Shown here: piece after piece, positions 6,900-58,312 of the stretch
Layout: every line of letters starts with the position of its first letter
Numbering within the stretch: the first letter of the stretch is position 1
DNA from: Mobula birostris
Taxonomy: Eukaryota
DNA length: 64,000 nt
NCBI RefSeq assembly: GCF_030028105.1
Contig: NC_092375.1
Location: 68,051,130 to 68,115,129 of the forward strand
Direction of reading: 5' to 3'
Notes under the pieces: model-generated
What the model was told of the DNA's origin: nothing
The model's input: the letters and a program-made list of their open reading frames with translations, nothing else
The model's database searches: none
Program-made: the position numbers and the translations under genes

Positions 6900-9800
6900 G
6901 ACCCTCCTGGGCCATGTGCCAGTGAGGGTCAAAATAGGATGATCTGGCAGATGAATGATTGGCTGAAGAACTGGTGAGGGGGCAGGATTTCAGATTTCTG
7001 AATCATTGGGATATCCTCTGGGGAAGGTATGACCTGTACAAAAAAGAAGGGTTACCCCTGGACCCAAGGGGGACCAAAATCCTTGCAGGAGGTTTGCTAG
7101 AGTTGTTGGGGAGGGTTTAAACTAATTTGGCAATTTGGGAACCGGAGTGATAGGGCTGAGCGTGGAGCAGTTGGTATACAAGTAGATGCAGTGTGTAGTG
7201 AGACTGTGAAGAAGGCAGGCAGCTGAGGCAAATTTGGGCAAATACAGTCAATAAGGTAAGCTGAAGTGTAACATGGGAGCAAATTCAAAAAAAAAGTAAT
7301 GAATTTAGAACTAACAGTGTTATAGTATACAGATTAAGGTAGATGATCATGTAGTGCAGTTAGAGATTGGCAGGTATGACGTTGTGGGCATCACTAAGTC
7401 GTGGCTGAAAGAAGATCAGAGTTGGAAGCTTGATATCCTAGAATACACATTGTATCAAAAGGATAGGAAGGTAAGCAGAGAGGGTGGGAAGGCTCTATTA
7501 GTAAAAAGTAAAACAAATCCTTTGAAGGAGGTGACATAGGATTGGAAAATGTAGAATCATGAGGGTTAAGTTCAGAAACTGCAAGGCTAAAAAGATCCTT
7601 ACTATATATACAGGTCTCCGAACAGTAGCCAGGAAGTGAGGTACAAAATACAATGGGAGCTAGAAGAGGCATGTTAAAAGAGCAATGCTACAACAGCAAT
7701 GGAAGATTTCAATATGTAGGTAGATTAGGAATAACCGGTTGGTGCTGGATCCCAAGAGATGGAATTTGGAGAATGCATATGAGATGGTTTTTTAGAGCAG
7801 CTTGCAATTAAGGTCACTATGGGAAAGCAATTCTGGACTGGGTGTTATGTAATGAAACAGATTTGACTGGGGAGCTTAAGGTAAAGGAACCCTTAGGAGC
7901 AAGTGATCATAATATGATAGAATTCACCCTGCAATTTTAAAGGAAGAAGCTAAAATCAGATGTATCAGTATTACAGTGAAGTAAAGGGAGTTACAGAAAC
8001 ATGACAGAGGAGCTGGCCAAAGTTGATTGGAAGAGAACACTAGCAGAACAGAAATGGCTAGAGTTTCTGGGAGTATTTCAGAAGGTACGGGTTAGATACT
8101 TCCCAAAGATGAAGAAGTATTACAAAGGGAGGATGACCCAACCGTGGCTGACAAGGGAAATCAAAAACAGTTTAAAAAAAATACAAAGTGTATATAATAT
8201 AGTAAAAATTAGTGGGCAGTTAGAGATTTGGGAAGCCTTTAAAAACCAATGGAAGACAACTAAAAAAGCCATAAGGAGAGAAAAGATGAAATATGAAGGT
8301 AAGCTAACTAATAATATAAAACCTAAGGTTATTCAGATATATAAACAATAGAGGTGAGAGTGAATATCAGACTGCTGGAAAATGACACTGAAGAGACAGT
8401 AATGGGGGATCAAAAAAATGTCGGAAGAACTTAATAGGTACTTAGCATCAGTATTCACTGTGAAAGACACTAGCAGAATGCCAGAAATTCAAGAGTGCCA
8501 TGGAGGAAAAGTGAGTGTACTTGCTATTACTAAGGAGAAGATGCTTGAGAAGTTAAAGGCTCTGAAGGTAAACAAGTCACCTGGACCAGATGGACTACAA
8601 CCCAGGGTTCCGAAAGAAGCAGCTGAAGGGATTGTAGAGGCATTAGTAATGATCGTTCAAAAATCACTAGATTCTAGAATGGTTCCAGTGGACTGTAAAA
8701 TTGCAAATGTCACTCCTCTCTTTAAGCAGGGAAGGAGCCAGAAGAAAGGACATTATAGGCCAATTAACCTGACTTCAGTGATTGGGAAGATGTTGGAGTC
8801 TGTTATTAAGGATGAGGTTTTAGTATACTTGGAGGCTCATGATAAAATAGGCCCCAGTCAGCATGGTTTCCTTAAGAGGAAATTTTGCCTGACAAATCTG
8901 TAGAAATTCTTTGAGGAAAAAATAGGCAGGATAGACAAAACAGAGTCAGTGGATGTTTTATACTTGGATTTTCAGCGGGCCTTTAACAAGGTGCCACACA
9001 TGAGCCCGGTTAAAAAGATTACAGCCCATGGTATTACAGAGAAGATACCACTAGTGTGAATAGAAGGGTGGCTGATTGGCAGGAGGAAAAGAGTGGGAAT
9101 AAAAGGTTTCTGGCTGGGTGCCTCTTGGTGCTCCACAGGGGTCAGTGTAGGGACTGCTTCTTTTCAGATTATATGTCAATGATTTTTAAAATGGATTTGA
9201 CGGCTTTGTGGCCAAGTTTTCAGAAGATATGAAGATAGGTGAAGGGTCAGGTATTGTTGAGGAAACAGGAAGGCCAGAAGGGCTTAGATATACTGGGAAA
9301 ATGAGCAAAGAAGTGGCAGATGGAATATAGTGTAGGGAAGTCAATGGTCATGAACTTCGGTAAAACAAGTAAAGGTATAGACTATTTTCTAAACGGAAAG
9401 AAAATTCAAAAATCAGAGGTGCAAAGGGACTTTGGAATCCTCATGTAGGACTTCCTAAAAGTTAACTTGCAGGTTGAGTCAGTGTTAAGGAAGGAAAATA
9501 CAATGTTACCATTCATTTCAAGAGGACTAGAATATAAAAGCAAGGGTCTAATGCCAAGGTTTTATAAGGCATTGGTCAATCTGCACTTGGAATATTCTGT
9601 GCAGTTTTGGGCCCTTTGTCTAAGAAAATTTGTGCTAACATTGGAGAGGGTCCAAAGGAGGTTCACGAGAATGATTCCATGAATGAAAGGGTTAGCATAC
9701 GAAGAGTGTTTGATGGCTCTGGGCTTGTACTCGCTGGAGTTTAGACAAATGAGCAAGGACCTTATTGAAACCAATCGAATATTGAAAAGGCTCAATAAAG

Positions 9801-28255: not shown

Positions 28256-28570
28256 TTATTAAAATAAGCACCAAACTGCACCAGTTTCTGGGACTTAGAT
28301 GCTCTAAATCTCTGGAATATGGCTAGCTGGTGTGGCCTCTTTAAGGATTCAGGATTGTCCTATTAATTGGCAGCCATGTTTTGGCACCAGGACTTCAGTG
28401 TTTAAGGAGCATCTGAATGGAGATTTGGTGCTAATTGTAAGCTCTACTTGGATTATTGTCTAACATCTAGTTTAATATTCTGTTCTCGTTTCAGTCTCGC
28501 GTATCTTGATTCCAGCCTGGGATACTCCAGCACTTGGGTCCAACCATCCTCACCTAGGTCTCCTGTCACA
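28256..28570 (+). repeat. 5' LTR of Gypsy element
   Basis: Aligns to 33884-34208; ends ...taggtctcctgtcaca; start uncertain by 2 nt (TG lost). Confidence 0.88.
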
Positions 28571-29260
28571 GTATGATTGAGTCAAAAGTGAACCCAGCAG
28601 GGTATTGGAGTCTCTCACCTGCTGTGGCCAGCCAGAGAGAAAGGATTTCTAGACAGAGCCTGGAGATACATGACCTCCAGGTTGTCGTGTGGCAACTTTC
28701 ACAAGGGGGAAGTCAGAGTGCTCAAGTGAGGCTGTTGGTCACTCTGCAGAGCCTAGAGAGATTAGATGGTGACCCGGGTTCTACCCGTGGCTTCTTCAGT
28801 CAGAGCTCATTAGTGTTCGAACTCCAGCCATCCCGGTTCCCTTTGGAGAACGAAAAGGTAGCTTTCATTATCTCCCTCCCGAATGGGAGAGCGCTGGCCT
28901 GGGCCACAGCGCATTGAGAACAAATGTCGGAGATTTGCTCAGATATGGAGGAATTCATGGCCACCATGACATGAAGAAGGTGTTCCATTACCCTGCCAGA
29001 GCCAGCCAAGACTTGCCTGACGAAGGTGTCAGGGTAGTTGGTTATCGGCCAACTATGCTATCAACTTTTAAACTTTGGCCCAAAAGAGTGGCTGAAGCAG
29101 GGAAGTCTTGGCAACTCTACTGTCACAGACTCCGAGACAAACTAAAGGATGCCCTCACCCTTGGAGAGCCTGCAGAGGATTTGGAGGTTCTGATCGACCA
29201 GTCCACCTGCCTCAATAATTGTCTGGCTGGGCGAAAGTGGAGACTACTTCCAGAGGTCCA

Positions 29261-30479
29261 TAGGGAGAACCTTGGGGACTATAGACCGGTGAGTCTTACG
29301 TCGGTGGTCTGCAAACTATTGGAAAGGATTCTTAAGAATAGGATCTACGAGCACTTGGAGAAGTACAGTCTTCTCAAGGATAGTCAACGTGGCTTTGTGA
29401 AGGGAAGGTGGTGCCTCACGAGTCTAATTGAGTTTTCTGAAGAGGTAACAAAAGAAATTGATGAGGGTAGGGTGGTAGATGTGGTCTACATGGATTTTAG
29501 CAAGGCATTTGACAAGGTCCCCCACAAGAGACTCATCCAGAAAGTCATGAGGCATGGGAGCAGTGGAACCTTGGCTGTTTGGATAAAAAATTGGCTTAAA
29601 GGAAGAAAGCAGAGGGTAGTAGTGGAAGGAAAGTATTCTGCCTGGAGGTCAGTGACTAGTGGAGTACTGCAAGGATCTGTCCTGAGACCTCTGCTCTGTA
29701 ATTTTTATAAATGACCTGGATGAAGAGGCGGAAGGATGGGTGAGTAAGTTTGCGGACGACACGAAGATTGGAGGAGTTGTAGATGGAGCTGTAGGTTATC
29801 AAAGGTTACAAGAGGATATAGACAGGATGCAGAGTTGGGCAGAAAAGTGGCAGATGGCGTTCAATCCGGATAAGTGTGAGGTGATGCATTTTGGAAGGAC
29901 AAACCAGAAGGCTGAGTACAGGATTAATGGTCGGTTACTTAAGAGTATTGTGTTCACTTCTGGTCACCTCATTATAGGAAGGATGTGGAAGCTATGGAGA
30001 GGGTGCAGGGGAGATTTAACAGGATGTTGCCTGTATTGAAAAACAAGTCTTATGAGGCAAGGTTAGCATATCTGGGACTTTTCTCTTTGGAGCATAGAAG
30101 GATGAGAGGGGACTTGATAGAGGTCTACAAGATTATGAGAGGCATAGATAGGGTGGATAGCCAGTACCTGTTTCCCAGGGCACAAATAGCAAACACCAGA
30201 GAGTATATGTACAAAGTTAAGGGAGGGAAGTTTAGGAGAGACATCAGGAGTAAGTTTTTTCTTACACAGAGGGTTTTAGGTGCCTAGAATGACTTGCCAG
30301 GGATGGTGGTGGAGGCTAAAACATTAGGGGTATTTAAGAGCCTCTTGGATAGGCACATGGATGAAAGAAAAATAGAGGGTACTGTGGGTTTAATACCTTT
30401 TTTCTTAAAGGAATATAAGGGTCGGCACAACATCGAGGGCTGAAGGGCTTGTACTGTGCCGTAGTATTCTAGCGTCTAG
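29261..30479 (+). mobile_element. 5'-truncated CR1 LINE nested in Gypsy gag
   Basis: YRPVSLTSV, DFSKAFDKVPH and KFADDTK motifs; tail tattctagcgtctag; gag resumes after 30480. Confidence 0.92.
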
Positions 30480-33400
30480 GTCAGAGATAGCTAGCCTGAG
30501 CCTGGTCTCAATGCATTGCAGTTCCATTCCCTGATCTCAAACAATGTCCAGCCCATCTCCTGCTCAGTACCTGATGAGTCGATGCAAATTGGCTGCCCAA
30601 GACTCTCCATCATTGAGGTCCCAGCGTCAGAGTTGAGGTGGTTACTTTTACTGTGGGGAACAGGTCATCTGCGGGCCAAATGTCTGAAGCTGCAGCTTTA
30701 GGGAGGACTGCTAAGACCATCCAGTGTTGAGAGGACTGTGACAGTAGCAGCCACTACTCCCAACTCCATGGATTCTGGTATCTGAGATCTCTTGGGGTAA
30801 GTACCAAAGAGAAGTGAATGGTTTTGTGGGCCCTAAGGCAGTTGGTAATTTCCTGGACTTGGGGATCACCTGTTGGCTCAACATAGTACCGCTGAAGTTC
30901 AGCCAGTCAATGCTCACAACTATTCTGGATAGTCACCTGCTAAGTTTCAAGCAGATCCAGCAGCAGATAATAGTTTTGTGGATGAGGATTGAGGATCATG
31001 TGGAGGACATTAGTTTCTAAGTCATCGATTTGTCTCTCACACCTCTGATCCTCAGCACCTTTGGCTGTCCCAGCATAACCCTTCTATGAAGTGGAAGGAA
31101 GGGAGAATCATTGCTTGGTCCAGTCATTGCAAGAGGTTATGTTTGCAATGTGGTGTTCCAACCGTCAGACTCCCCCAAGACCAATGACCAATGAGGGGGC
31201 AGACTTCAGTCTGGGGTAGTCTGAAGCATTCTGGAGACCCAGTCTGGCCCTCAGACAGACAAGCTGTCTCCAGCCAACAGGACCATGCGAATCCCGATGC
31301 TGTCTAGTCCAGCACATGCTGGAAATAGACAGGGTGGTTTCTAGATTGGGAGCAAACCAAGGAGCCTGGAACTCTAGCAGCTAAGCCTAAGGGATCCAGC
31401 TGCCAGGTCCTGACTAAAGGAAGGACTCCTAAATGCAGACCCTTGGAGCTTAGCTCTGGAGGCACAAGGGCCATTTGTAATGCCTTGTTACTGTCGTGTG
31501 AGGATATGGACAAGGATTTGGACTTTGACTTGGCCACTGTTTCAATGAAGGAGTCTAGTGAACCTATGGAAGATATTGAGTTCTGTCAAATCACCCCTGT
31601 CACTTAAGGAGCCTCGGGAGTCATCCTCAAAGAAAAAATCAAAGTTAATTGCAACACCCAAATCAGTCGATATCCTTTCTATCTGCAAGGATTTGGAAGA
31701 GGCCTTCAGCAAGGAAAAGGCCTCGACTCTTCCACCACACTGACCAGACAACTGTGCTATAGATTTACTGGCTGGTATTGTACACGCTCACTGACACGGA
31801 GAGAAGTGCTATGTACATGAAAGAGGCACTTGCCATGGGATTCATTCAGCCCTCCTCCTCATCAACTGGTGTGGGTTTCTTCTTCATACAGAAAAAGGAT
31901 GGGAGCCTGCAGCCATGCAGTGATTAGAGGGTTGAATTGCTTAACAGCCAAGAATCGTTATTCCCTTCCACTCATGAACACAGCCTTCAAGATTCTCCAA
32001 GGGGTAAGAGTACTCATGAAGCTAGACTTGGGAGAGTGCGTACAATCTGGGTTACAAAAAAGAGGGCAACAAATGGAAAACTGCATTCAACACACCGATG
32101 AGGCACTATGAGTACCTGGTCATGCCCCTCAACCTCACAAACATTCCAGTTTTCCAGACCTTTATAAACTGTGCTCCAGGATGTTTTCCATAAGTACGCT
32201 TTCATCTTGGATGATATCCTAATCTTCTCAAAGTCCCTGAAGCAACATGTTGCTCATCTCAGGGATATTTTATAGAGGCTTCTAGACCGTGAATTTATGT
32301 CAAGCTGGAGAAGTTTAAATTTCATGTGACCACCATTTCACCTTTGGGTTTTATCAAGTCTAATGGAAGTCTCAAGGTGGACCCTACTAAGACCCAAGCA
32401 GTCACAGATTGGACTTGTTTCACATTGGATGGTTATAGCCAACAATTTCTGGGACTTGCCAACTTCTACCAGAAGTTCATCAGCTACTTCAGCTCAAGGG
32501 CAGCTCCACTGACAGCCCTAAGTAAGAAATCCATGGTTCCTTTTGTTTGGACTACCAACGTGGAGGCTGCATTTGCGGAGGTCAAACAGCTCCCATTTTG
32601 GTTTCACCTAACCCAGACCCTTTCCTTCATCATGGAGGTGCATGCAGTATTGTATCAAAGGACACCTTCAGACAGTAAACTGCACCCATGTGCATTCTTC
32701 TCCAGGCAGCTATCACCGGCAGAGATGAACTATGACATTGGGAATAGAGAGCTGCTTGTGGTCAAGTTGGCTTTGGAGGAATGGTGTTACTGGCTTGAGG
32801 GAGCTAAGAACCCTTTTATCATTTGAACAGACTACAAGAACCTGGTTTGTATTCAGGAGGCCAAGAGAATGCATTTTAGGCAGGCCAGGTGGTTTCTCTT
32901 CTTTAACCCCTTTAATTTTGTCCTGACCTATCCATCGGTGTCGAAAATTCAGAAACAGATGCCTTGTCCTGTCAGTTCAATAAACCCAAATGAGAGGAGA
33001 GCCAACCGCCATTTTGTTCGTATTCATGTCATGTTTTTGGAGGGTGTTCAGTATGCTGACTGGGGCAAGTCTTTCCTGTGTTTCACCCGTGGTCCAATGG
33101 CCAGATGGAGTGGGCCAACCAAAAATTGGAATGAACACTAAGATGCCAGGCCTCAGAAAGACCAGATGTGTGGTGTGACCATTTGATGTGGGGCAGAGGT
33201 CACCCAGAACACTTCACTGCATTTGGCACATGGGATGTCGCTGTTTAAATGCCAACTTGGATATTCTCTGCCATTCTTCCCTGAGCAGGAGGTTGAGTTT
33301 GCGGTTCCTGCAACTGAAGATCTCGTTCAACGCTGCAAGGAGGAATGGACTAGAGCAAAGCAGAATTTTGTTAACCTCTACCCACAAAACTGAAGTAAAG

Positions 33401-33883
33401 GCTAACCACAAGAGAAGACTGGGACCAGCTTTGCATCTTGGGAAACAAGTTTGGCTATTTACACAGAATTTGCCACTCTGAGTGGAGTCTAACAAATTGG
33501 CACCCAAGTTCATTGGACCCTGCAAAGTTCTCAAAAAAAGTAAACCCTGTGGCTTACACCTTGCAGCTCCCCAAGACTCTCAAAATCAATCCCACTTTCC
33601 ACATTTGCAAATTAAAACCTGTGAACACCAGCCATTTAGCCCTACCGCCATCAGTCCCACCACCACCTAGGTTTGTCAATGGTGAACAAGTCTTCACCAT
33701 GAGAAGAATTTTAGAATCACAAATTGTTTGGGATGTTCAACAGTTCTTCGTGGACTGGGAAGGATTCAGACCCAAGGAATGGTGCTAGGTTCCCGGAAGG
33801 GACAACTTGGATCCAGCTCTCATCTATGACTACCTTCACCGTCTCTCCAAGCAACCACGGCCATCAGAAGAGGGGGAGGGGTC

Positions 33884-36076: not shown

Positions 36077-37015
36077 ATGTCCCCTGAGACGGTGATGTGC
36101 CTCTCATGTGAGATGTGGCAGTCTTGGGGGAACGCCCCTCTCCCGCAGAGTCACATCTGCCAGAAGTGCATACGGCTGGGCGATCTGGAAGACCGTGTAA
36201 GGAATCTGGAGCAGCAGCTGGATGACCTTCAACTCATAAGGGAGAGTGAGGCAGTCATAGATGAGAGCTACAGGGAGGTAGTCACACCTAGGCTGTCGGA
36301 AGCAGGTCGTTGGGTGACAGTCAGAGGGGGGAAAGCGAAGGTGAGCAGACAGGTAGTGCAGAGCACCCCTATAGCCATTCCCCTGAATAATAAGTTTACC
36401 GTCCTGGCTACTGTCAGTGGGGACGACCGACCAGGTGTGAGCCACGGTGGCAGGGCCTCCGGCACTGAGTCTGACCCTGTGGTGCAGAAGGGTGGGACGG
36501 AGAAGAGGAGAGCTGTCGTCATTGGAGACTCTATAGTCAGCGGAGCAGACAGATTTTGTGTACGTGAGAAGGACACCCGCATGGCTTGTCGCCTCCCGGG
36601 TGCCAGGGTCCGGGATGTCTCTGACCGGGTGCACGACATCCTGGTACGAGAGGGAAAGCAACCAGAAGTCGTGATACATGTTGGGACCAATGACATAGGC
36701 AGGAAGAGGGATGAGGTCCTGAAGTGTGAGTTTCGGGAATTAGGCAGAAGGTTGAAGAACAGGACCTCAAGGGTGACGTTCTCAGGATTGCTGCCAGTGC
36801 TACATGACAGAGATGGTAAGAATTGAAGGAGATGGCAGTTGAATGTGTGGCTGAGGAGTTGGTGCAGGGAGCAGGGTTTTAGATTTTTAGATCATCGGGA
36901 TCTCTTCTGGGGAAGGTGGGGCCTGTACAGATTGGATGGGTTGCACCTGAACTCGAAGGGGAGCAATATTCTTGCAGGTACGTTTGCTAGCATGATTCGG
37001 GAGGGTTTAAACTAA
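36077..37015 (+). pseudogene. CR1 ORF1p (zinc finger, coiled coil, SGNH/GDSL esterase) with one premature stop
   Basis: CLSC...CQKC; LEDRVRNLEQQLDDL; VIGDS, HVGTND, DGLHLN; TGA at 36824 (likely from TGG); natural stop TAA at 37013-37015. Confidence 0.9.
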
Positions 37016-39941
37016 TTTGCGAGGAGGATGGGACCCAGAGCGATAGAGCAGTGAAAGAAGTACATGGAGTAAAGCCAGATCTAACATACAGAGAGGCTTT
37101 GAGGAAAGAGAAGCAGAATAAATGGTGTAAAGACAGTAAGGTAGAAGGGCGGAAATGTGTGTACCTCAATGCAAGAAGCATCAGGAACAAAGGTGATGAA
37201 CTGAGAGCTTGGATACATACATGGAATTATGAAGTAGTGGCTATTACAGAGACTTGGCTGGCACCAGGGCAGGAATGGATTCTCAATATTCCTGGATTTC
37301 AGTGCTTTAAAAGGGATAGAGAGGGTGGAAAAAGGGGAGGAGGGGTGGCATTACTGGTCAGGGATACTATTACAGCTACAGAAAGGGTGGATAATGTAGC
37401 AGGATCCTCTTTTGAGTCAATATGGGTGGAAGTCAGGAACAGGAAGGGAGCAGTTACTCTCCTGGGGGTATTCTATAGCCCCCCTGGTAGCAGCAGAGAT
37501 ACAGAGGAGCAGATTGGGAGGCAGATTTTGGAAAGGTGCAAAAATAACAGGGTTGTTATCATGGGTGGCTTTAACTTCCCTAATATTGATTGGCACCTGA
37601 TTAGTTCCAAGGGTTTAGATGGGGCAGAATTTGTTAAGTGTGTCGAGGATGGATTCCTGTCACAGTATGTGGACAGGCCGACCAGGGGGAATGCCATACT
37701 AGATCTAGTACTAGGTAATGAACCGGGTCAGGTCACAGATCTCTCAGTGGGTGAGCATCTGGGGGACAGTGACCACCGCTCCCTGGCCTTCAGCATTATC
37801 ATGGAAAAGGATAGAATCAAAGAGGACAAGAAAATTTTTAATTGGGGAAAGGCAAATTATGAGGCTATAAGGCTAGAACTTGCATGTGTGAATTGGATTG
37901 ATGTTTTTGCAGGGAAATGTACTATGGACATGTGGTCGATGTTTAGAGATCTCTTGCGGGATGTAAGGGATAAATTTGTCCCGGTAAGGAAGATAAAGAA
38001 TGGTAGGGTGAAGGAACCATGGGTGACAAGTGAGGTGGAAAATCTAGTCAGGAGGAAGAAGGCAGCATACATGAGGTTTAGGAAGCAAGGATCAGCTGGG
38101 TCTATTGAGGAATATAGGGAAGCAAGAAAGGAGCTTAAGAAGGGGCTGAGAAGAGCAAGAAGGGGGCATGAGAAGGCCTTGGCGAGTAGGGTAAAGGAAA
38201 ACTCCAAGGCATTCTTCAATTATGTGAAGAAAAAAAGGATGACAGGAGTGAAGGTAGGACCGATTAAAGATAAAGGTGGGAAGATGTGCCTGGAGGCTGT
38301 AGAAGTGAGCGAGGTCCTCAATGAATACTTCTCTTCGGTATTCACCAATGAGAGGGAACTTGATGATGGTGAGGACAATATGAGTGCGGTTGATGTTCTG
38401 GAGCATGCTGATATTAAAGGAGAGGAGGTGTTGGAGTTGTTAAAATACATTAGGACAGATAAGTCCCTGGGGCCTGACGGAATATTCCCCAGGCTGCTCC
38501 ACGAGGCGAGAGAAGAGATTGCTGAGCCTCTGGCTAGGATCTTTATGTCCTCGTTGTCCACGGGAATGGTACTGGAGGATTGGAGGGAGGCAAATGTTGT
38601 TCCCTTGTTCAAAAAAGGTAGTAGGGATAGTCCGGGTAATTATAGACCAGTGAGCCTTACGTTTGTGGTGGGAAAGCTGTTGGAAAAGATTCTTAAGAGA
38701 TAGGATCTATAGGTATTTAGAGAATCATGGTCTGATAAGGGACAGTCAGCATGGCTTTGTGAAGGGCAGATCGTGTCTAACAAGCCTGATAGAGTTCTTT
38801 GAGGAGGTGACCAGGCATATAGATGAGGGTAGTGCAGTGGATGTGATCTATATGGATTTTAGTAAGGCATTTGACAAGGTTCCACACGGTAGGCTTATTC
38901 AGAAAGTTAAAAGGCATGGGATCCAGGGAAGTTTGGCCAGGTGAATTCAGAATTGGCTTGCCTGCAGAAGGCAGAGGGTGGTGGTGGAGGGAGTATATTC
39001 AGATTGGAGGATTGTGACTACTGGTGTCCCACAAGGATCTGTTCTGGGACGTCTACTTTTCGTGATTTTTATTAACGACCTGGATGTGAGGGTAGAAGGG
39101 TGGGTTGGCAAGTTTGCAGACGACACAAAGGTTGGTGGTGTTGTAGATAGTGTAGGGGATTGTCAAAGATTGCAGAGAGACATTGATAGGATGCAGAAGT
39201 GGGCTGAGAAGTGGCAGATGGAATTCAACCCGGAGAAGTGTGAGGTGGTACACTTTGGAAGGACAAACTCCAAGGCAGAGTACAAAGTAAATGGCAGGAT
39301 ACTTGGTAGTGTGGAGGAGCAGAGGGATCTCGGGGTACATGTCCACAGATCCCTGAAAGTTGCCTCACAGGTGGATAGGGTAGTTAAGAAAGCTTATAGG
39401 GTGTTAGCTTTCATAAGTCGAGGGATAGAGTTTAAGAGTCACGATGTAATGATGCAGCTCTATAAAACTCTGGTTAGGCCACACTTGGAGTATTGTGTCC
39501 AGTTCTGGTCACCTCACTATAGGAAGGATGTGGAAGCATTGGAAAGGGTACAGAGGAGATTTACCAGGAGGCTGCCTGGTTTAGAAAGCATGCATTATGA
39601 TCAGAGATTAAGGGAGCTAGGACTTTACTCTTTGGAGAGAAGGAGGATGAGAGGAGACATGATAGAGGTGTACAAGATAATAAGAGGAATAGATAGAGTG
39701 GATAGCCAGCACCTCTTCCCCAGGGCACCACTGCTCAATACAAGAGGACATGGTTTTAAGGTAAGGGGTGGGAAGTTCAAGGGGGATATTAGAGGAAAGT
39801 TTTTTACTCAGAGTGGTTGGTGCGTGGAATGCACTGCCTGAGTCAGTGGTGGAGGCAGATACACTAGTGAAGTTTAAGAGACTACTAGACAGGTATATGG
39901 AGGAATCTAAGGTGGGGGCTTATATGGGAGGCAGGGTTTGA
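37006..39941 (+). pseudogene. CR1 ORF2p (AP endonuclease and reverse transcriptase), disrupted
   Basis: YLNARS, AITETW, SDH, YRPVSLT, DFSKAFDKV, PQGSVLG, KFADD; frameshift near 38695, TGA at 38942, frameshift near 39810. Confidence 0.92.
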
Positions 39942-40522: not shown

Positions 40523-43500
40523 GAGTGCGAACAGTTTAAAAAGAGGAAGAAAGTCGCAGACTTTTTCTCTTCGGATCAAGAAGACAGCGGTAAGAGGCTA
40601 AGGACTTCCAGCGAGAAGACATTTTATTTCTCGGAGTAGGAGAGAGGCCAGACTGCGCAGGCGCGTGGCGTCAACCAGTTGAGCGCGAAGAGTTTAAAAA
40701 GTAAACCACCATATCTAGCGGGCAGCGTCGGAGCGGGCTGCGGAGTGAGAGGGTGCAGAGTGAGAGGGCTTTGGCTCAATGGGCTTCGGCGGAGACGGGA
40801 AGAGGCTTCCTGCGCCCTTTGAGTCTCATAGTAACGGAGTAAGTTACAGTTTTTTGGTATTTAGTACAAACAGTAGCACCAGAGGTATGCATCTAGGATT
40901 AGTGTTGGGCTTGAAGTGCCAGATGTGGGGACCCTGGGAGACTCCCAGCCTCCCCAAGGATTACATCTGCACCAGGTGCACTGAGATGAGGCTCCTGAAG
41001 GACCGTGTTAAGGAGCTGGAGATGGAAATTGATGACCTACGGCTAATTAGGGAAAGTAAGGAGGTGATAGATACTACCTATAGAGAGGTAGTGGATAGCA
41101 CCCCTGTGACAGTCCCCCTCAGAAATCGATATATTGTTTTGGATACTGCTGAAGAGGCAGACCTGACAGAGGAGGACCACAGTGAACGAGACTCTGGCAT
41201 CCTGCCCAGTGCCGAAATCAAGAGAGCAAGAAGAAATGCGGTAGTTATAGGGGATTCCATCGTAAGGGGGACGGACAAGAGATTCTGCGAGCTGGACGAG
41301 GATACCCAGATGGTGTGTTGCCTCCCTGGTGCCCAGGTACAGGATGTCTCAGATTGAGTCCGAGTATTCTGAGGAGAGAGGCAGAGCAGCCGGAAGTCTT
41401 GGTACATGTTGGTACCAATGACATAGACAGAAAAAGAGAGGAGGTCCTGAAGAAAGATTACTGGGAGCTAGGAAGAAAATTGAAAAGCCGGACCTCCAGA
41501 GTAATAATATCAGGATTGCTGCCTGAGCTGCGCACTAATAATGGTAAGAATAGCAGAATTAAGCAGATGAATGTGTGGCTAAGTAACTGGTGCAGGGGGC
41601 AGGGCTTCAAACTCTTGAATCATTGGGATCTATTTTAGGGAAGGTATGACTTATACAAAAAAGATGGATTACACCTGAACTCAAAAGGTCGTAATATCCT
41701 GGCGGGATTGTTTAATATAGCTGTTAGGGAGGGTTTAAACTAAGTTGGCAAGGGGAAAGAAACCAAGGTGTTATGGTCAAGGAAGAGGGAAATAGAACTA
41801 AGTCAAAAATACTGTGCAGCAAAGATGGCAAGAAGGACAGGCCGGAGAATATATAGGATAATTTGCTGCAAAATAGAAATATAGCAAAATCAGCAACAGA
41901 TACTGATCTAAATATACTGTACTTAACTGCATGTAGCATTAGAAATAAAGTGGATGACCTTGCTGCACAGCTGCAGGTTAAAAGATATGACATTGTGGCC
42001 ATCACCGATTCATGGCTAAATGATGGATGTGATCGGGAGCTGAATATCCAAGGATACACAGTGTATAGGAAAGATAGGAAGGTAGATAAAGTGGGTGGCG
42101 TGGCCCTGATGGTAAGTAACGATATCAAATCAATAGAAAGAAGGGACATAGGATCAGAAGAGGTAGAATCCTTATGGGTAGAATTAAGAAATGGCAAGGG
42201 TAAAAAGACACTATTAGCAGTTATATACAGGCCTCCAAACAGCAGCCGGGATGTGGACTACAAGTTACAGCTGGAAATAGAAAAAGCATGTCAGAAGGAA
42301 AATGTCAAGATAATTATGGGGGATTTTAATATGAAAGTGGATTGGGAAAATCAGGAAGGTAAAGGATCTCAGGAGAGGGAGTTTGTGGAATGCCTACAGG
42401 ATGGCTTTTTGGAGCAGCTTGTCCAGAAGCCCACCAGGGGACCGGCAGTTTTGGATTGGGTGCCGTGTAACGAACCTTAGGCGATTGGGGAGCTGGAGGT
42501 AAAGGAACCCCTTGAAAGTAGTGATCATAATATGATTGAGTTCAGTTTCAAATTTGAAAAGGAGAAGCTGGTATCAGGTGTATCGATATTTCAGTGGAAC
42601 AGGGGAAATTACAGTGGTATGAGAGAGGAACTGGCCCAAGTCGATTGAAAAAGTAAGCTAAATGGAGGGACGGCAGAGCAGAATTGGATGAAATGCAGGA
42701 AAAATATATTCCAAGAAAAACGAAAATCATGAATGGAAAAATGGCACATATGTGGCTAACGAGAGAGGTTAAGGCAAAAATAAAAGCAAAAGAATCGGCG
42801 TACAAGGAAGCAAAAATTAGTGGGAAAAATGAGGACTGGAAGACTTTTAAAAACTTACAGAAGGAAACTAAGAAAGTCATTAGGAAAGAAAAGATGAATT
42901 ATGAAAGGAAGTTGACGATTAACATAAAAAAGGATGCTGAGTTTTTTTTAAATATATGAAGAGTAAAAGAGTGACGAGGGTAGATACGGGACCGATTGAA
43001 AATGATGCTGGAGAAATTATAATGGATAACAAAGGGATGGCGGAGGAACTGAATGAGTATTTTGCATCAGTCTTCACAGTGGAAGACATGAGCAATATAC
43101 CTGATAGCCAGAGGTATCAGGGAATAGAATTAGGTACAGTCAAGATTACTAGAGAGAAGGTGCTTGGGAAGCTAAGTGGACCAAGAATAGATAAGTCTCC
43201 CGGTCCGGATGAGGTGCACCCAAGGGGTCTGAAGGAGGTGGCTTTGGAGATTGTGGAAGCATTGGAAATTATCTTCCAGGAATCAATAGACTCTGGCATG
43301 GTTCTGGAGGACTGGAAGGTCACAAATGTAGTTCTGCTATTTAAGAAAGGAAGGAGGCAGCAAAAAGAAAATTACAGACCTATTAGTCTGACATCGGTAG
43401 TTGGAAAGATATTGGAGTCAATCCTCAAGCACGAGGTTATGAAATACCTCGAGGTGCATGACAAGATAGGCCGAAGCCAGCATGGTTTCATGAAGGGAAG

Positions 43501-44767
43501 ATCCTGCCTCACCAACCTACTGGAGTTTTTTGAGGTAATCTCGAATAAGATTGACAAGGGAGAGGCTGTGGATGTTGTGTATTTGGATTTTCAAAAGGCC
43601 TTCAATAAGGTGCCGCTTATGAGGCTGCTTAACAAGATGAGAGCCCATGGAATTACAGGAAAGATATTGAAATGGGTGGAGCATTGGCTGATAGGCAGAA
43701 AGCAAAGGATGGGAATAAAGGGATCCCATTCTGATTGGTTGCCGGTTACTAGTGGTGTTCCGCAGGGGTCGGTGTTGGGGTCGCTTTTTTTTATGATGTA
43801 TATCGATGATTTGGATTATGGATTAAATGGTTTTGTGGCTAAGTTTGCGGATGACACCAAGATAGGTGGAGGAGCAGGAATTGTTGAAGAAACGGAAAGG
43901 TTGCAGAGAGACTTAGTTAGTTTAGGAGAGTGGGCAAAGAAATGGCAGATGAGATACAACGTTGACAAATGTACAGTTGTACATTTCGGAAGAAGAAATA
44001 ATCGGGCAGATTATTATTTAGATGGGGAGAAAATTCAAAAATCGGAAGTGAAAAGGGACCTGGGGGTCCTCGTGCAGGATACCCTAAAGGTTAACCACCA
44101 AGTTGGATCAACAGTAAGGAAAGCGAATGCTATGTTGGCATTCATTTCAAGAGGAATAGTGTATAAGAGTAAGGAGGTGTTGATGAGGCTCTATGGGGCA
44201 TTAGTGAGACCTCATTTGGAATACTGTGGGCAGTTTTGGGCCCCCTATCTTAGAAAGGATGTTCTGATGTTGGAAAGGGTTCAGAGAAAATTTACGAGGA
44301 TGATTCCTGGAATGCAGGGGCTAACATATGAGGAGCGTTTGTCGGCTCTTGGATTGTATTCATTAGAGCATAGAAGAATGAGAGGGGATCTCATAGAAAC
44401 GTTTCGAATGTTGAAAGGGTTGGACAGGGTAGATGTGGAAAGGTTGTTTCCCTTGGTGGGTGAGTCCAGGACAAGAGGCCATAGTCTTAGAATTACAGGG
44501 TACCCAGCTAAAACAGATGAGGAGAATTTTTTTTAGCCAGAGGGGCGTGGATTTGTGGAATTCGTTGCCACATACAGCTGTGGAGGCCCGATAAAGGAGG
44601 AGATTGACAGGTATCTAATTAGTCAGGGTATCAAGGGATATGGGGAAAAAGCCAGAAATTGGAACTAGATGGGTGAATAGTTTAGCTCATGGGGGAGCTG
44701 TGGAGCAGACTCGATGGGCTGACTGGCCTACTTCTCCTTTGTCTTGTGATTGTGATATCTTATGATT
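40523..44767 (+). mobile_element. Near full-length CR1 LINE of a second subfamily (copy B)
   Basis: CpG-rich 5' UTR; ORF1 from ATG 40887 (CTRC, VIGDS, HVGTND, DGLHLN, EGLN* at 41743); ORF2 APE and RT (42956..44536); TSD GTTACA (40498-40503 and 44768-44773). Confidence 0.93.
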
Positions 44768-47577: not shown

Positions 47578-48550
47578 AGGCAAACAACAGGAATTCTGCA
47601 GATGCTGGAAATCCAAGCAACACACATCAAAGTTGCTGGTGAACGCAGCAGGCCAGGCAGCATCTCTAGGAAGAGGTGCAGTTGACGTTTCAGGCCGTGA
47701 CCCTTCGTCAGAACTAACTGAAGGAAGAGTGAGTAAGGGATTTGAAAGTTGGAGGGAGAGGGGGAGATCCAAAATGATAGGAGAAGACAGGAGGGGGAGG
47801 GATGGAGCCAAGAGCTGGACAGGTGATTGGCAAAGGGGATACGAGAGGATCATGGGACAGGAGGTCTGGGAAGAAAGACAAGGGGGGGGGGACCCAGAGG
47901 ATGGGCAAGAGGTATATTCAGAGGGACAGATGGAGAAAAAGGAGAGTGAGAGAAAGAATGTGTGCATAAAAATAAGTAACAGATGGGGTACGAGGGGGAG
48001 GTAGGGCCTAGCGGAAGTTAGAGAAGTCGATGTTCATGCCATCAGGTTGGAGGCTACCCAGACGGAATATAAGGTGTTGTTCCTCCAACCTGAGTGTGGC
48101 TTCATCTTTACAGTAGAGGAGGCCGTGGATAGACATGTCAGAATGGGAATGGGATGTGGAATTAAAATGTGTGGCCACTGGGAGATCCTGCTTTCTCTGG
48201 CAGACAGAGCGTAGATGTTCAGCAAAGCGGTCTCCCAGTCTGCGTCGGGTCTCGCCAATATATAAAAGGCCACATCGGGAGCACCGGACGCAGTATATCA
48301 CCCCAGTCGACTCACAGGTGAAGCGTTGCCTCACCTGGAATGGTGGTAAGGGAGGAAGTGTAAGGGCATGTGTAGCACTTGTTCCGCTTACACGGATAAG
48401 TGCCAGGAGGGAGATCAGTGGGGAGGGATGGGGGGGACGAATGGACAAGGGAGTTGTGTAGGGAGCGATCCCTGCGGAATGCAGGGGGGGGGGGAGGGAA
48501 AGATGTGCTTAGTGGTGGGATCCCGTTGGAGGTGGCGGAAGTTACGGAGA
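47578..48550 (-). mobile_element. Penelope-like element 3' portion (GIY-YIG endonuclease)
   Basis: ORF 48008..48448: FTCESTGVIYCVRCSRCGLLYIGETRRRLGDRFAEH...HFN...EQHLIFRLGSLQPDGMN; pyrimidine-rich 3' region; hammerhead-bearing tail. Confidence 0.92.
47679..47716 (-). ncRNA. Minimal type I hammerhead ribozyme of the Penelope-like element
   Basis: Minus strand UAGUU-CUGACGA-AGGGUCACGGCCU-GAAAC-GUC^AACUG: intact core, helix I UAGUU/AACUG, short helix II, palindromic ACGU helix III. Confidence 0.8.
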
Positions 48551-56609: not shown

Positions 56610-58312
56610 TGAAGGATGAAATACGTCAATAAACTTCCTACCTACATCAGTGACACTTGGCACGTTCTTGATCTTTTCAATGATTTCAATCCCCAGCCCC
56701 AATCATCTTATTTTCCTATGGATGTCCAGTCCCAATACACCATCAGGAAGGCCTCAAAGCTCTCCATTTGTTTCTGGACAGCAGGCCCAACTAGTTCCCC
56801 TCCAACACCACTCTCCTCCGTCTGGCAGAACTTGTCCTCACTCTCAGTAGTTTCTCCTTCGGCTCCTCCCATTTCCTTCAAACAAAAGGTGTAGCCATGG
56901 GCACTCGCTGTTTCTGCACCCATGCAGAGCTCGTCAACTTCATCAACTTACCCTCCAACTTCCACCGTGCCTCAAATTTACCTGATCCATTTCTGACACC
57001 TCCCTCCCTTTTGTCGATCTCTCTGTCTCTACCTCTGGAGCCAGCTTAACTACTGATGTCTGTTATAAACCCACTGACTCTCACAGCTACCTGGACTATA
57101 TCACTTCCCACCCCGTTACTTGTAAAAATGCCATCCCCTTCTCTCAATTCCTCCATCTCCGCTGCATCTGTTCACAGGATGAGGCTTTTCATTCCAGAAT
57201 GACAGAGATGTCCTCCTTCTTCAAAGAAAGGGGCTTCCCTTCCTCCACCATCAATGCTGCCCTCAACCGCATCTCTTCCATTCCATGCATGTATGCCCTC
57301 ACCCCATCCTCCCACCACCCCACCAGGGATTGGGTTCCTCTTGTCCTCATCTACCACCCCATAAGTCTCAGCATCTAGCATATAATTCTCTGTAACCCAC
57401 CATCTCTAACAGGATCCCATCACCAAGTACGACTTCCCACTTTCTGCTTTCCACAGGGATCGCTCCCTAAGCAACTCTGCCCATTTGTCCCTCTCCACTT
57501 ATCTCCCTCCTGGCACTTATCCATGTAAGCAGAACAAGTTGCTACACCTGCCCCTACACCTCCTCCCTCACTACGATTCAGGACCCCAAACAGTCCTTCC
57601 AGGTGAAGTGACACTTCACTTGTGAGTCTGTTGTGGTCATCTACTGTATCCAGAGTTTCCATTGTGGCTCCCTATATATCAGTGCTTCACCGAGCACCTA
57701 TGCTCTGTCTGCCAGAAAAAGCAGGATCCCCCAATGGCCACTCATTTTAATTCCACTTCCCATTCCCATTCCATCATGTCAGTCCATGACCTCCTCTACT
57801 GTCGCAATGAGGCCACACTCAGGTTGAAGGAGCAACACCTTATATTCCGTTACGGTAGCCTCCAACCTGATGGTGTGAACATCGATTTCTCAAACTTCCA
57901 GTAATACCCCCATCTCCTTCACTATTCCCATTCCCCATTCCCATTTCCCTCTCTCATCTGATCTCCTTATCTGCCCATCAACTCCCTCTGGTGCTGTTTC
58001 CACTTTTCTTTCTCCCATAGCCTTCTGTCCTCTTCTATCAGATTCCCCCAGCCCTGTATTTCTTTCACCAATCAACTTCCCAGCTCTTTACTTCACCTCT
58101 CCCCTCTCCCAGGTTCACCTATCAACTTGTGTTTCTTCCTCCCCTCCCCCCACTTTCTTACTCTTCATCTTTTTATCTCCAGCCCTGATGAAGGGTCTTG
58201 GGCCAAAATGTTGACTGTACTCTTTTCCATAGATGCTGCCTGGCCTGCTAAGTTCCTCCAGCATTTTGAGTGTGTTGCTTAGATTTCCAGTATCTGTAGC
58301 TTTTCTCTTGTT
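56610..58312 (+). mobile_element. Degenerate Penelope-like element (RT remnants, GIY-YIG, decayed hammerhead tail)
   Basis: LPTYI.DT, MDVQS.YT, AELVLTL, QTKGVAMGT, YKPTDSHSYLDY, IPFSQFL, EQHLIFR.GSLQPDG; ctgatgaagggtcttgggccaaaatgtt at 58185. Confidence 0.88.

Follow-up and report, generated by a model that had tools for sequence, protein, structure and literature searches.

A candidate -1 ribosomal frameshift signal conserved at the ORF1/ORF2 junction of CR1 retrotransposons

Bicistronic long interspersed elements (LINEs) such as L1 and SART1 express the second of their open reading frames (ORFs) at a low level after the first, as a separate ORF2 protein, and in SART1 this occurs through UAAUG coupling. 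ORF2 of mammalian L1 is translated by an unusual reinitiation, and the translation of LINE ORF2 is considered a long-open question (PMC5009743). In the Dictyostelium elements TRE5-A and TRE3-A, which are retrotransposons of the APE type that lack long terminal repeats (non-LTR), a -1 frameshift is stated to be necessary for ORF2 translation (PMC5911963). Heptamers of the U_UUA_AAC, G_GGA_AAC and A_AAA_AAC types are among the most shift-prone for mammalian ribosomes (PMC5009743). Here, a 64,000-nucleotide (nt) stretch of the Mobula birostris genome (assembly GCF_030028105.1, contig NC_092375.1, positions 68,051,130 to 68,115,129; hereafter the window) is analyzed, which contains at about 36.0-40.0 kb a near full-length LINE of the CR1 type whose two frames meet at U_UUA_AAC. 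Its junction resembles those of retroviral gag-pol and coronavirus 1a/1b (U_UUA_AAC in infectious bronchitis virus; PMC5009743) in heptamer and phase, in the order of a structural frame before a polymerase frame, and in the -1 position of a polymerase frame without a start of its own. Unlike these viral systems, CR1 is a non-LTR retrotransposon without a protease, and its site has an adjacent stop and a G-rich box, with no hairpin or pseudoknot found. TRE5-A and TRE3-A differ from CR1 in element group, host and an unrelated ORF1, and L1 and SART1 differ from it in that a slippery heptamer is shared by the two frames of CR1, and a usable AUG is lacking in many CR1 lineages. Judged from the conservation, phase and offset described below, the CR1 ORF1/ORF2 junction is probably a -1 programmed ribosomal frameshift site that would give an ORF1-APE-RT fusion, RT being the reverse transcriptase.

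In the window, ORF1 ends GAG GGT TTA AAC TAA (37001-37015), as a preliminary description of this DNA had given it, with T TTA AAC in ORF1 phase as an X_XXY_YYZ heptamer (Table 1). The -1 frame was said to run unbroken into ORF2 and indeed does so (open from 36991 to 38703, 570 amino acids), carrying the APE domain (Pfam Exo_endo_phos, E 1e-15), with an RVT_1 match further on; its first ATG, placed correctly at 37561, lies deep within the APE domain. The window copy itself is dead, a point absent from the preliminary description: ORF1 is cut by a premature stop (36824-36826) and ORF2 is broken at about 38.7-38.9 kb. The frameshift question therefore concerns the family and not this fossil copy. 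The 15-nt junction recurs exactly at 7111 and 41729, both sites having been named before; its three matches in the window at up to two mismatches compare with 0.20 expected, and three were reached in 1 of 100 shuffles. The 41729 copy keeps the -1 offset, with one stop in its linker.

The order of APE before RT in ORF2 (Pfam Exo_endo_phos, RVT_1) is accompanied by ORF1 homologues with the SGNH esterase domain PF13472 in rays, sharks, a chimaera, frogs, a turtle, a snake, a lizard and a bird, rays contributing the closest named proteins (91% to one of Mobula). The CR1-type ORF1 homologues group apart from L2-like esterases in a tree that is rough and has no support values. These elements are presumably CR1, on the basis of ORF1 homology and of the known features of the family. 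The esterase ORF1, the APE-RT ORF2 and a short tandem 3' repeat are as in canonical vertebrate CR1 (PMC13343379; PMC3905857). Among the retrieved proteins, an SGNH hydrolase named from Pseudomonas aeruginosa (P0021) has the ending EGLN and 76% identity with CR1 ORF1 of the shark type, and probably reflects host contamination. Gene models named TMEM204, RPS24, ABHD14A, HAO2 and NUBP1 isoforms (P0014, P0015, P0020, P0034, P0066, P0106) carry pieces of CR1 ORF1, by exonization or annotation error.

Copies from the Mobula genome were collected either through the upstream ORF1 protein or with a degenerate DGLHLN pattern, so that the motif itself was not used for these junction-blind copies, which make up 148 of the 178 copies kept after removal of duplicates. 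A constant -1 offset among copies, named in the preliminary description as a test, was found and favors frameshifting: between the heptamer and the APE motif, modal distances are 162, 258, 162, 150, 216, 201, 192 and 240 nt, a multiple of three in all eight subfamilies with a repeated mode, while three older copy clusters have no modal distance. Outside this genome the distances are 105, 150, 117, 159, 285, 270, 117, 117 and 291 nt, with 104 nt in a broken copy (a multiple of three in 9 of 10). Altogether, 13 different linker lengths occur, all with one -1 offset. The APE motif is in frame in 86 of the 120 copies that have it, and in the linkers of these 86, stops number 0.23 for every 45 codons when the -1 frame is read, compared with 3.65 and 4.88 for the other two. 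Upstream, 8 of 10 subfamilies have the -1 frame closed 1-5 codons 5' of the heptamer, and all 123 copies are free of ATG in the open stretch. The heptamer therefore cannot be explained by upstream initiation or dual coding, and entry from ORF1 into ORF2, a frame that overlaps the site, is confined to the few codons containing it. One apparent natural fusion frame of 1,090 amino acids (L251, G000:C24:46968600-46974600) was rejected, since it arises from a gap in the assembly with a tandem repeat after it; this locus sits among near-identical duplicates on its contig.

Conservation of the heptamer was examined at the nucleotide level. For a near-equivalent of the junction 15-mer, GGAGGGTTTAAACTA, the 4.0-Gb genome has 10,489 occurrences, versus 20 for its reversed control. 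An in-frame Leu-Asn-stop end is present in 92 of the 148 junction-blind copies, the remaining 56 showing indels, truncations and other decay, and these 92 read T TTA AAC (87), T TTA AAT (4) or A TTA AAC (1), other Leu codons being absent. A control Leu-Asn pair 20 codons upstream uses CTG 60 and TTG 47 times, and AAC 68 and AAT 47 times (117 colinear copies). Across the genome, the exact heptamer is found in 12,996 of 14,173 anchored copies (91.7%) with any N-YTN-AAY-TA ending; a loss of about 2% per free site would be expected from post-insertion decay. The codon before Leu varies between subfamilies in its first two letters (Gly, Thr, Ala, Ser, Cys), and its third letter is T in 116 of 117 colinear copies; GGT, ACT, GCT, AGT, TGT, GTT, GAT and AAT were seen at this place in the Mobula genome and CAT, TCT and TTT elsewhere. 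The residue before Leu thus appears free and its third base fixed.

Beyond this genome, a metagenome scan gave 50 loci, 12 of them with the junction and the rest incomplete at their ends, L2-like or unrelated. Ten of the 12 are presumably bird-type CR1, assigned by likeness to a gull-family bird protein (P0107) and to what is known of bird CR1; of the others, L061 corresponds to a sturgeon-named protein cluster and lacks Met ahead of the APE motif, and L062 is more distant. The heptamer is T TTA AAC in 11 of the 12. On a tree of 20 lineages from the Mobula genome, birds and other animals (8 of 28 representatives having been left out as duplicates or because of indels or an absent APE), the heptamer third positions show 1, 0 and 0 changes, compared with 1-11 (mean 6.1) at 17 conserved control codons, although representatives for this tree and for the foreign comparison needed at least 8 of 9 junction letters, which inflates conservation there. 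The junction-blind and genome-wide counts are free of this bias. The control third positions appear near saturation, and the stop interchanges between TAA and TAG while the heptamer stays fixed. The rarity of synonymous heptamer variants, the second test of the preliminary description, is seen in the junction-blind, genome-wide and tree counts and likewise favors frameshifting. None of the sequencing runs that contain the sequence is recorded as RNA; in contigs of four runs guessed to be RNA, no heptamer variant was present among the 40 differences listed of 117, a weak result that counts neither way.

Protein ends extend this pattern. Of 266 proteins fetched, 180 end shortly past the catalytic motif and 90 of these end xLN, among them named frog, turtle, snake and lizard proteins and P0107. 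Fourteen residues occur as x, and E, K, Q, M or W, whose codons cannot end in T, are found there in 1 of the 90; at the two positions before x the same residues make up 37% and 44%. The xLN ending is present in 88 of 136 CR1-like proteins versus 2 of 44 L2-like ones. Taken together, the comparisons argue for a real and deeply conserved signal, apparently of recoding type, in a major vertebrate LINE clade.

At such a site, the stop directly after the heptamer would terminate ORF1 for most ribosomes and a minority would slip back by one base, tRNA-Leu from UUA to UUU and tRNA-Asn from AAC to AAA. The slipped ribosomes would read ...E-G-L-N-L-I-C... and continue via the variable linker into APE and RT, making the ORF1-APE-RT fusion in a low and fixed proportion, much as gag-pol is made. 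Through the coiled coil of ORF1, which spans residues 31-71 in the predicted model of a homologue, the polymerase could then enter ORF1 particles in a defined proportion. The pause would probably come from the adjacent stop together with the G-rich box 10 nt downstream, not from a pseudoknot. This G run begins exactly 10 nt past the heptamer in 64 of 109 copies and 8-12 nt past it in 88; 20 copies lack it. Its third-codon positions show 1 and 0 changes on the 20-lineage tree, and of the 145 Gly codons in APE only 48 are GGG; the box therefore looks like an RNA-level signal. G-quadruplexes are able to stimulate -1 slippage at UUUAAAC (PMC3919603), and for one plant virus a strong effect of a nearby stop on frameshifting is described (PMC5009743). 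The G box might alternatively be bound by a protein.

Several observations weigh against a frameshift. Forced fusion of ORF1 and ORF2 is said to impair human L1. The APE motif is out of frame in 34 of the 120 copies that have it and no motif was found in 58 of 178, which is read as decay, and the selection of tree representatives noted above has the same bearing. The foreign locus L062 carries G_UUA_AAC (G TTA AAC). No hairpin or pseudoknot was detected 5-9 nt downstream of the heptamer by analyses of local structure, long-range pairing lying outside the test: the consensus folding energy is 0.0 (18 cartilaginous-fish and 8 bird-type sequences), folding of the window copy gives z = +1.10, the local stem search found no stimulator, and there is no Rfam match at the junction. 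Prediction gives a G-quadruplex of a weak, two-tier form, and this for only 10 of the 28 representatives, and the optimum spacing for such stimulators of 6-8 nt (PMC3919603) is exceeded by the 10 nt of CR1. Finally, start codons are present in part of the family: an in-frame linker AUG occurs in 12/15, 5/6, 3/3 and 3/3 copies of other subfamilies, and four of the 8 bird-type copies (L063, L064, L067, L074) have an ATG 2 nt past the stop. The third test of the preliminary description, on a conserved AUG before the APE motifs, therefore gives a mixed result. Met before the motif is absent in 30 of 32 copies of the window's subfamily, where residue 186 is the first Met in 4 of the 5 long copies, and in 6/7 and 2/3 copies of two further subfamilies, and no AUG is conserved at one shared place; other subfamilies carry the linker AUGs just given. 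On balance, the frameshift interpretation of the preliminary description, which says nothing of the missing structured 3' stimulator, is supported by the synonymous-variant and offset checks; slippage, fusion protein and stimulator are inferred.

The strongest competitor is termination-reinitiation, in which ribosomes would stop at the ORF1 end and, using an AUG or non-AUG codon close by, begin again in the -1 frame to make a separate ORF2 protein, with the heptamer and the G box as cis signals. The linker AUGs, the ATG after the stop in the four bird-type copies and a GTG in L065 are what it would predict, and AUG-independent initiation is regarded as likely for mammalian LINE ORF2 (PMC5009743). 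However, the codon after the stop is TGG, TGC, AGT or TTG in Mobula subfamilies and TGG, TCG or CCG in the other bird-type copies, mostly not start-like; the linker Met positions (38, 39, 46, 54) differ between subfamilies, with the frame upstream of them still open; and reinitiation leaves unexplained an in-phase X_XXY_YYZ with a free residue and a fixed third base. It is accordingly considered unlikely as the general explanation, and the two modes could coexist in some lineages. The L2-like esterase elements L071 and L070 are without the heptamer, and their ORF1 ends in an overlapping ATGA stop-start in L071 and in TTGA in L070; these ends, in copies with broken frames downstream, hint that the sister group, and with it perhaps the wider group, may use reinitiation.

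Expression of ORF2 from a spliced or internally started transcript, with the conserved letters as an RNA-processing or DNA signal, is very improbable. ACTAA resembles a branch point and TTTGGCAG a splice acceptor in only some subfamilies, and some public gene models join CR1 ORF1 and ORF2 pieces (P0025), but the acceptor-like AG is absent in several subfamilies and is only a few bases from the branch-like motif, and splicing would leave unexplained both the heptamer in ORF1 phase beside the stop and the TAA/TAG interchange next to a fixed heptamer. In contigs from the four runs guessed to be RNA, a GT..AG joint was absent among the 15 joints listed of 25, again weak and counting neither way. 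Conservation at the protein level or by descent, with ORF1 needing a Leu-Asn end and ORF2 a Phe-Lys-Leu start and no recoding role, could appeal to other ORF1 codons that are also uniform within the genome (for example His CAC in 10/10 subfamilies) but is largely refuted by the upstream-frame and tree results, the -1 frame having no upstream way in and control third positions nearing saturation over the 20 lineages, and the terminal ORF1 residues lie past the last helix, outside the fold modeled for a homologue, which leaves it as scarcely credible as splicing.

A broader form of the frameshift reading can be proposed only tentatively, and is rather doubtful: an ancient, new type of signal across animals, composed of heptamer, adjacent stop and an unstructured G box at a fixed 10 nt acting via a bound protein or G-quadruplex, in which U_UUA_AAC, G_GGA_AAC and A_AAA_AAC would have been swapped among lineages to give a gag-pol-like CR1 polymerase fusion. 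Distant homologues ending in GN all end Q-G-N (9/9), which is compatible with G_GGA_AAC and also counts for the main frameshift reading, and seven more carry K-N near the same place, compatible with A_AAA_AAC. Scans of viral contigs for the DNA of Q-G-N or x-K-N homologues found nothing, and genome contigs gave five loci with no CR1 junction; because this DNA was not recovered, the swap idea draws on protein ends. Three distant ORF1 homologues (P0165, P0238, P0254) end F-F-R or F-F-H, protein ends that could hide a U-rich shift site.

No report of CR1 frameshifting was found in literature searches; older CR1-related papers were outside coverage and an earlier mention is possible. The original chicken and turtle CR1 papers reportedly describe closely spaced, overlapping ORFs. 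In the parts covered of a 2026 survey of the vertebrate CR1 group (PMC13343379) and of an esterase structure paper (PMC3905857), the word frameshift is absent and ORF2 translation is unaddressed. Among non-LTR elements, the covered portion of PMC5009743 deals with HeT-A frameshifting, TART and L1 and does not mention CR1, and the covered portions of PMC11835228, PMC5006619, PMC4255032 and PMC1925062 hold nothing on CR1 recoding. On the present reading, the CR1 site would function in the manner of gag-pol, without the usual structured stimulator.

Table 1. Features of the CR1 junctions in the window (positions within the 64,000 nt)
Feature	Position	Strand	Basis or remark
ORF1 (Cys-motif N-terminus, coiled coil, SGNH esterase)	36077..37015	+	ORF reading; homologues with PF13472; model of a homologue
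Last -1-frame stop 5' of the candidate shift site	36988..36990	+	followed by 5 codons without ATG, then the heptamer
Putative slippery heptamer U_UUA_AAC, ORF1 phase	37006..37012	+	sequence reading and conservation
ORF1 stop, directly 3' of heptamer	37013..37015	+	TAA or TAG across lineages
G-rich box, candidate stimulator	37023..37032	+	begins 10 nt past heptamer; window copy has A at 37025 within the run
Linker without AUG, open in -1 frame	37013..37164	+	heptamer-to-APE distance 35-97 codons across lineages
APE endonuclease domain of ORF2	37165..37776	+	residues 58-261 of the frame from 36994
C-terminal ORF2 part with RT match	38945..39841	+	separated by breaks from the N-terminal part in the window copy
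Junction of second CR1 subfamily	41729..41743	+	heptamer 41734-41740; -1 offset, 192 nt to APE motif
Junction of third, decayed CR1 copy	7111..7125	+	heptamer 7116-7122; offset not readable, too decayed

Other elements surround these features. The second CR1 in Table 1 is near full-length (40600-44536) and belongs to another subfamily, with a 5' region, ORF1, the same junction and a 531-amino-acid RT frame. Decayed frames at 28558-33788, with gag-, RT/RNase H-, integrase- and chromo-like words and a CR1 fragment inside, are presumably those of a gypsy-type LTR element, and frames at 48008-48508 (- strand) and 56986-57378 (+ strand), with a GIY-YIG-like motif, are taken to be pieces of a Penelope-type element.

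In most vertebrate species, the CR1 group supplies the dominant retrotransposons (PMC13343379). If the reading proposed here is true, a conserved -1 frameshift would explain how CR1 makes its reverse transcriptase, settling the question of ORF2 translation for this clade. Annotations of the ORF2 start would be corrected, and a frameshift signal without evident RNA structure would be gained. The CR1 polymerase would be redefined as an ORF1 fusion, in which the esterase and the coiled coil are tied directly to the integration enzyme.

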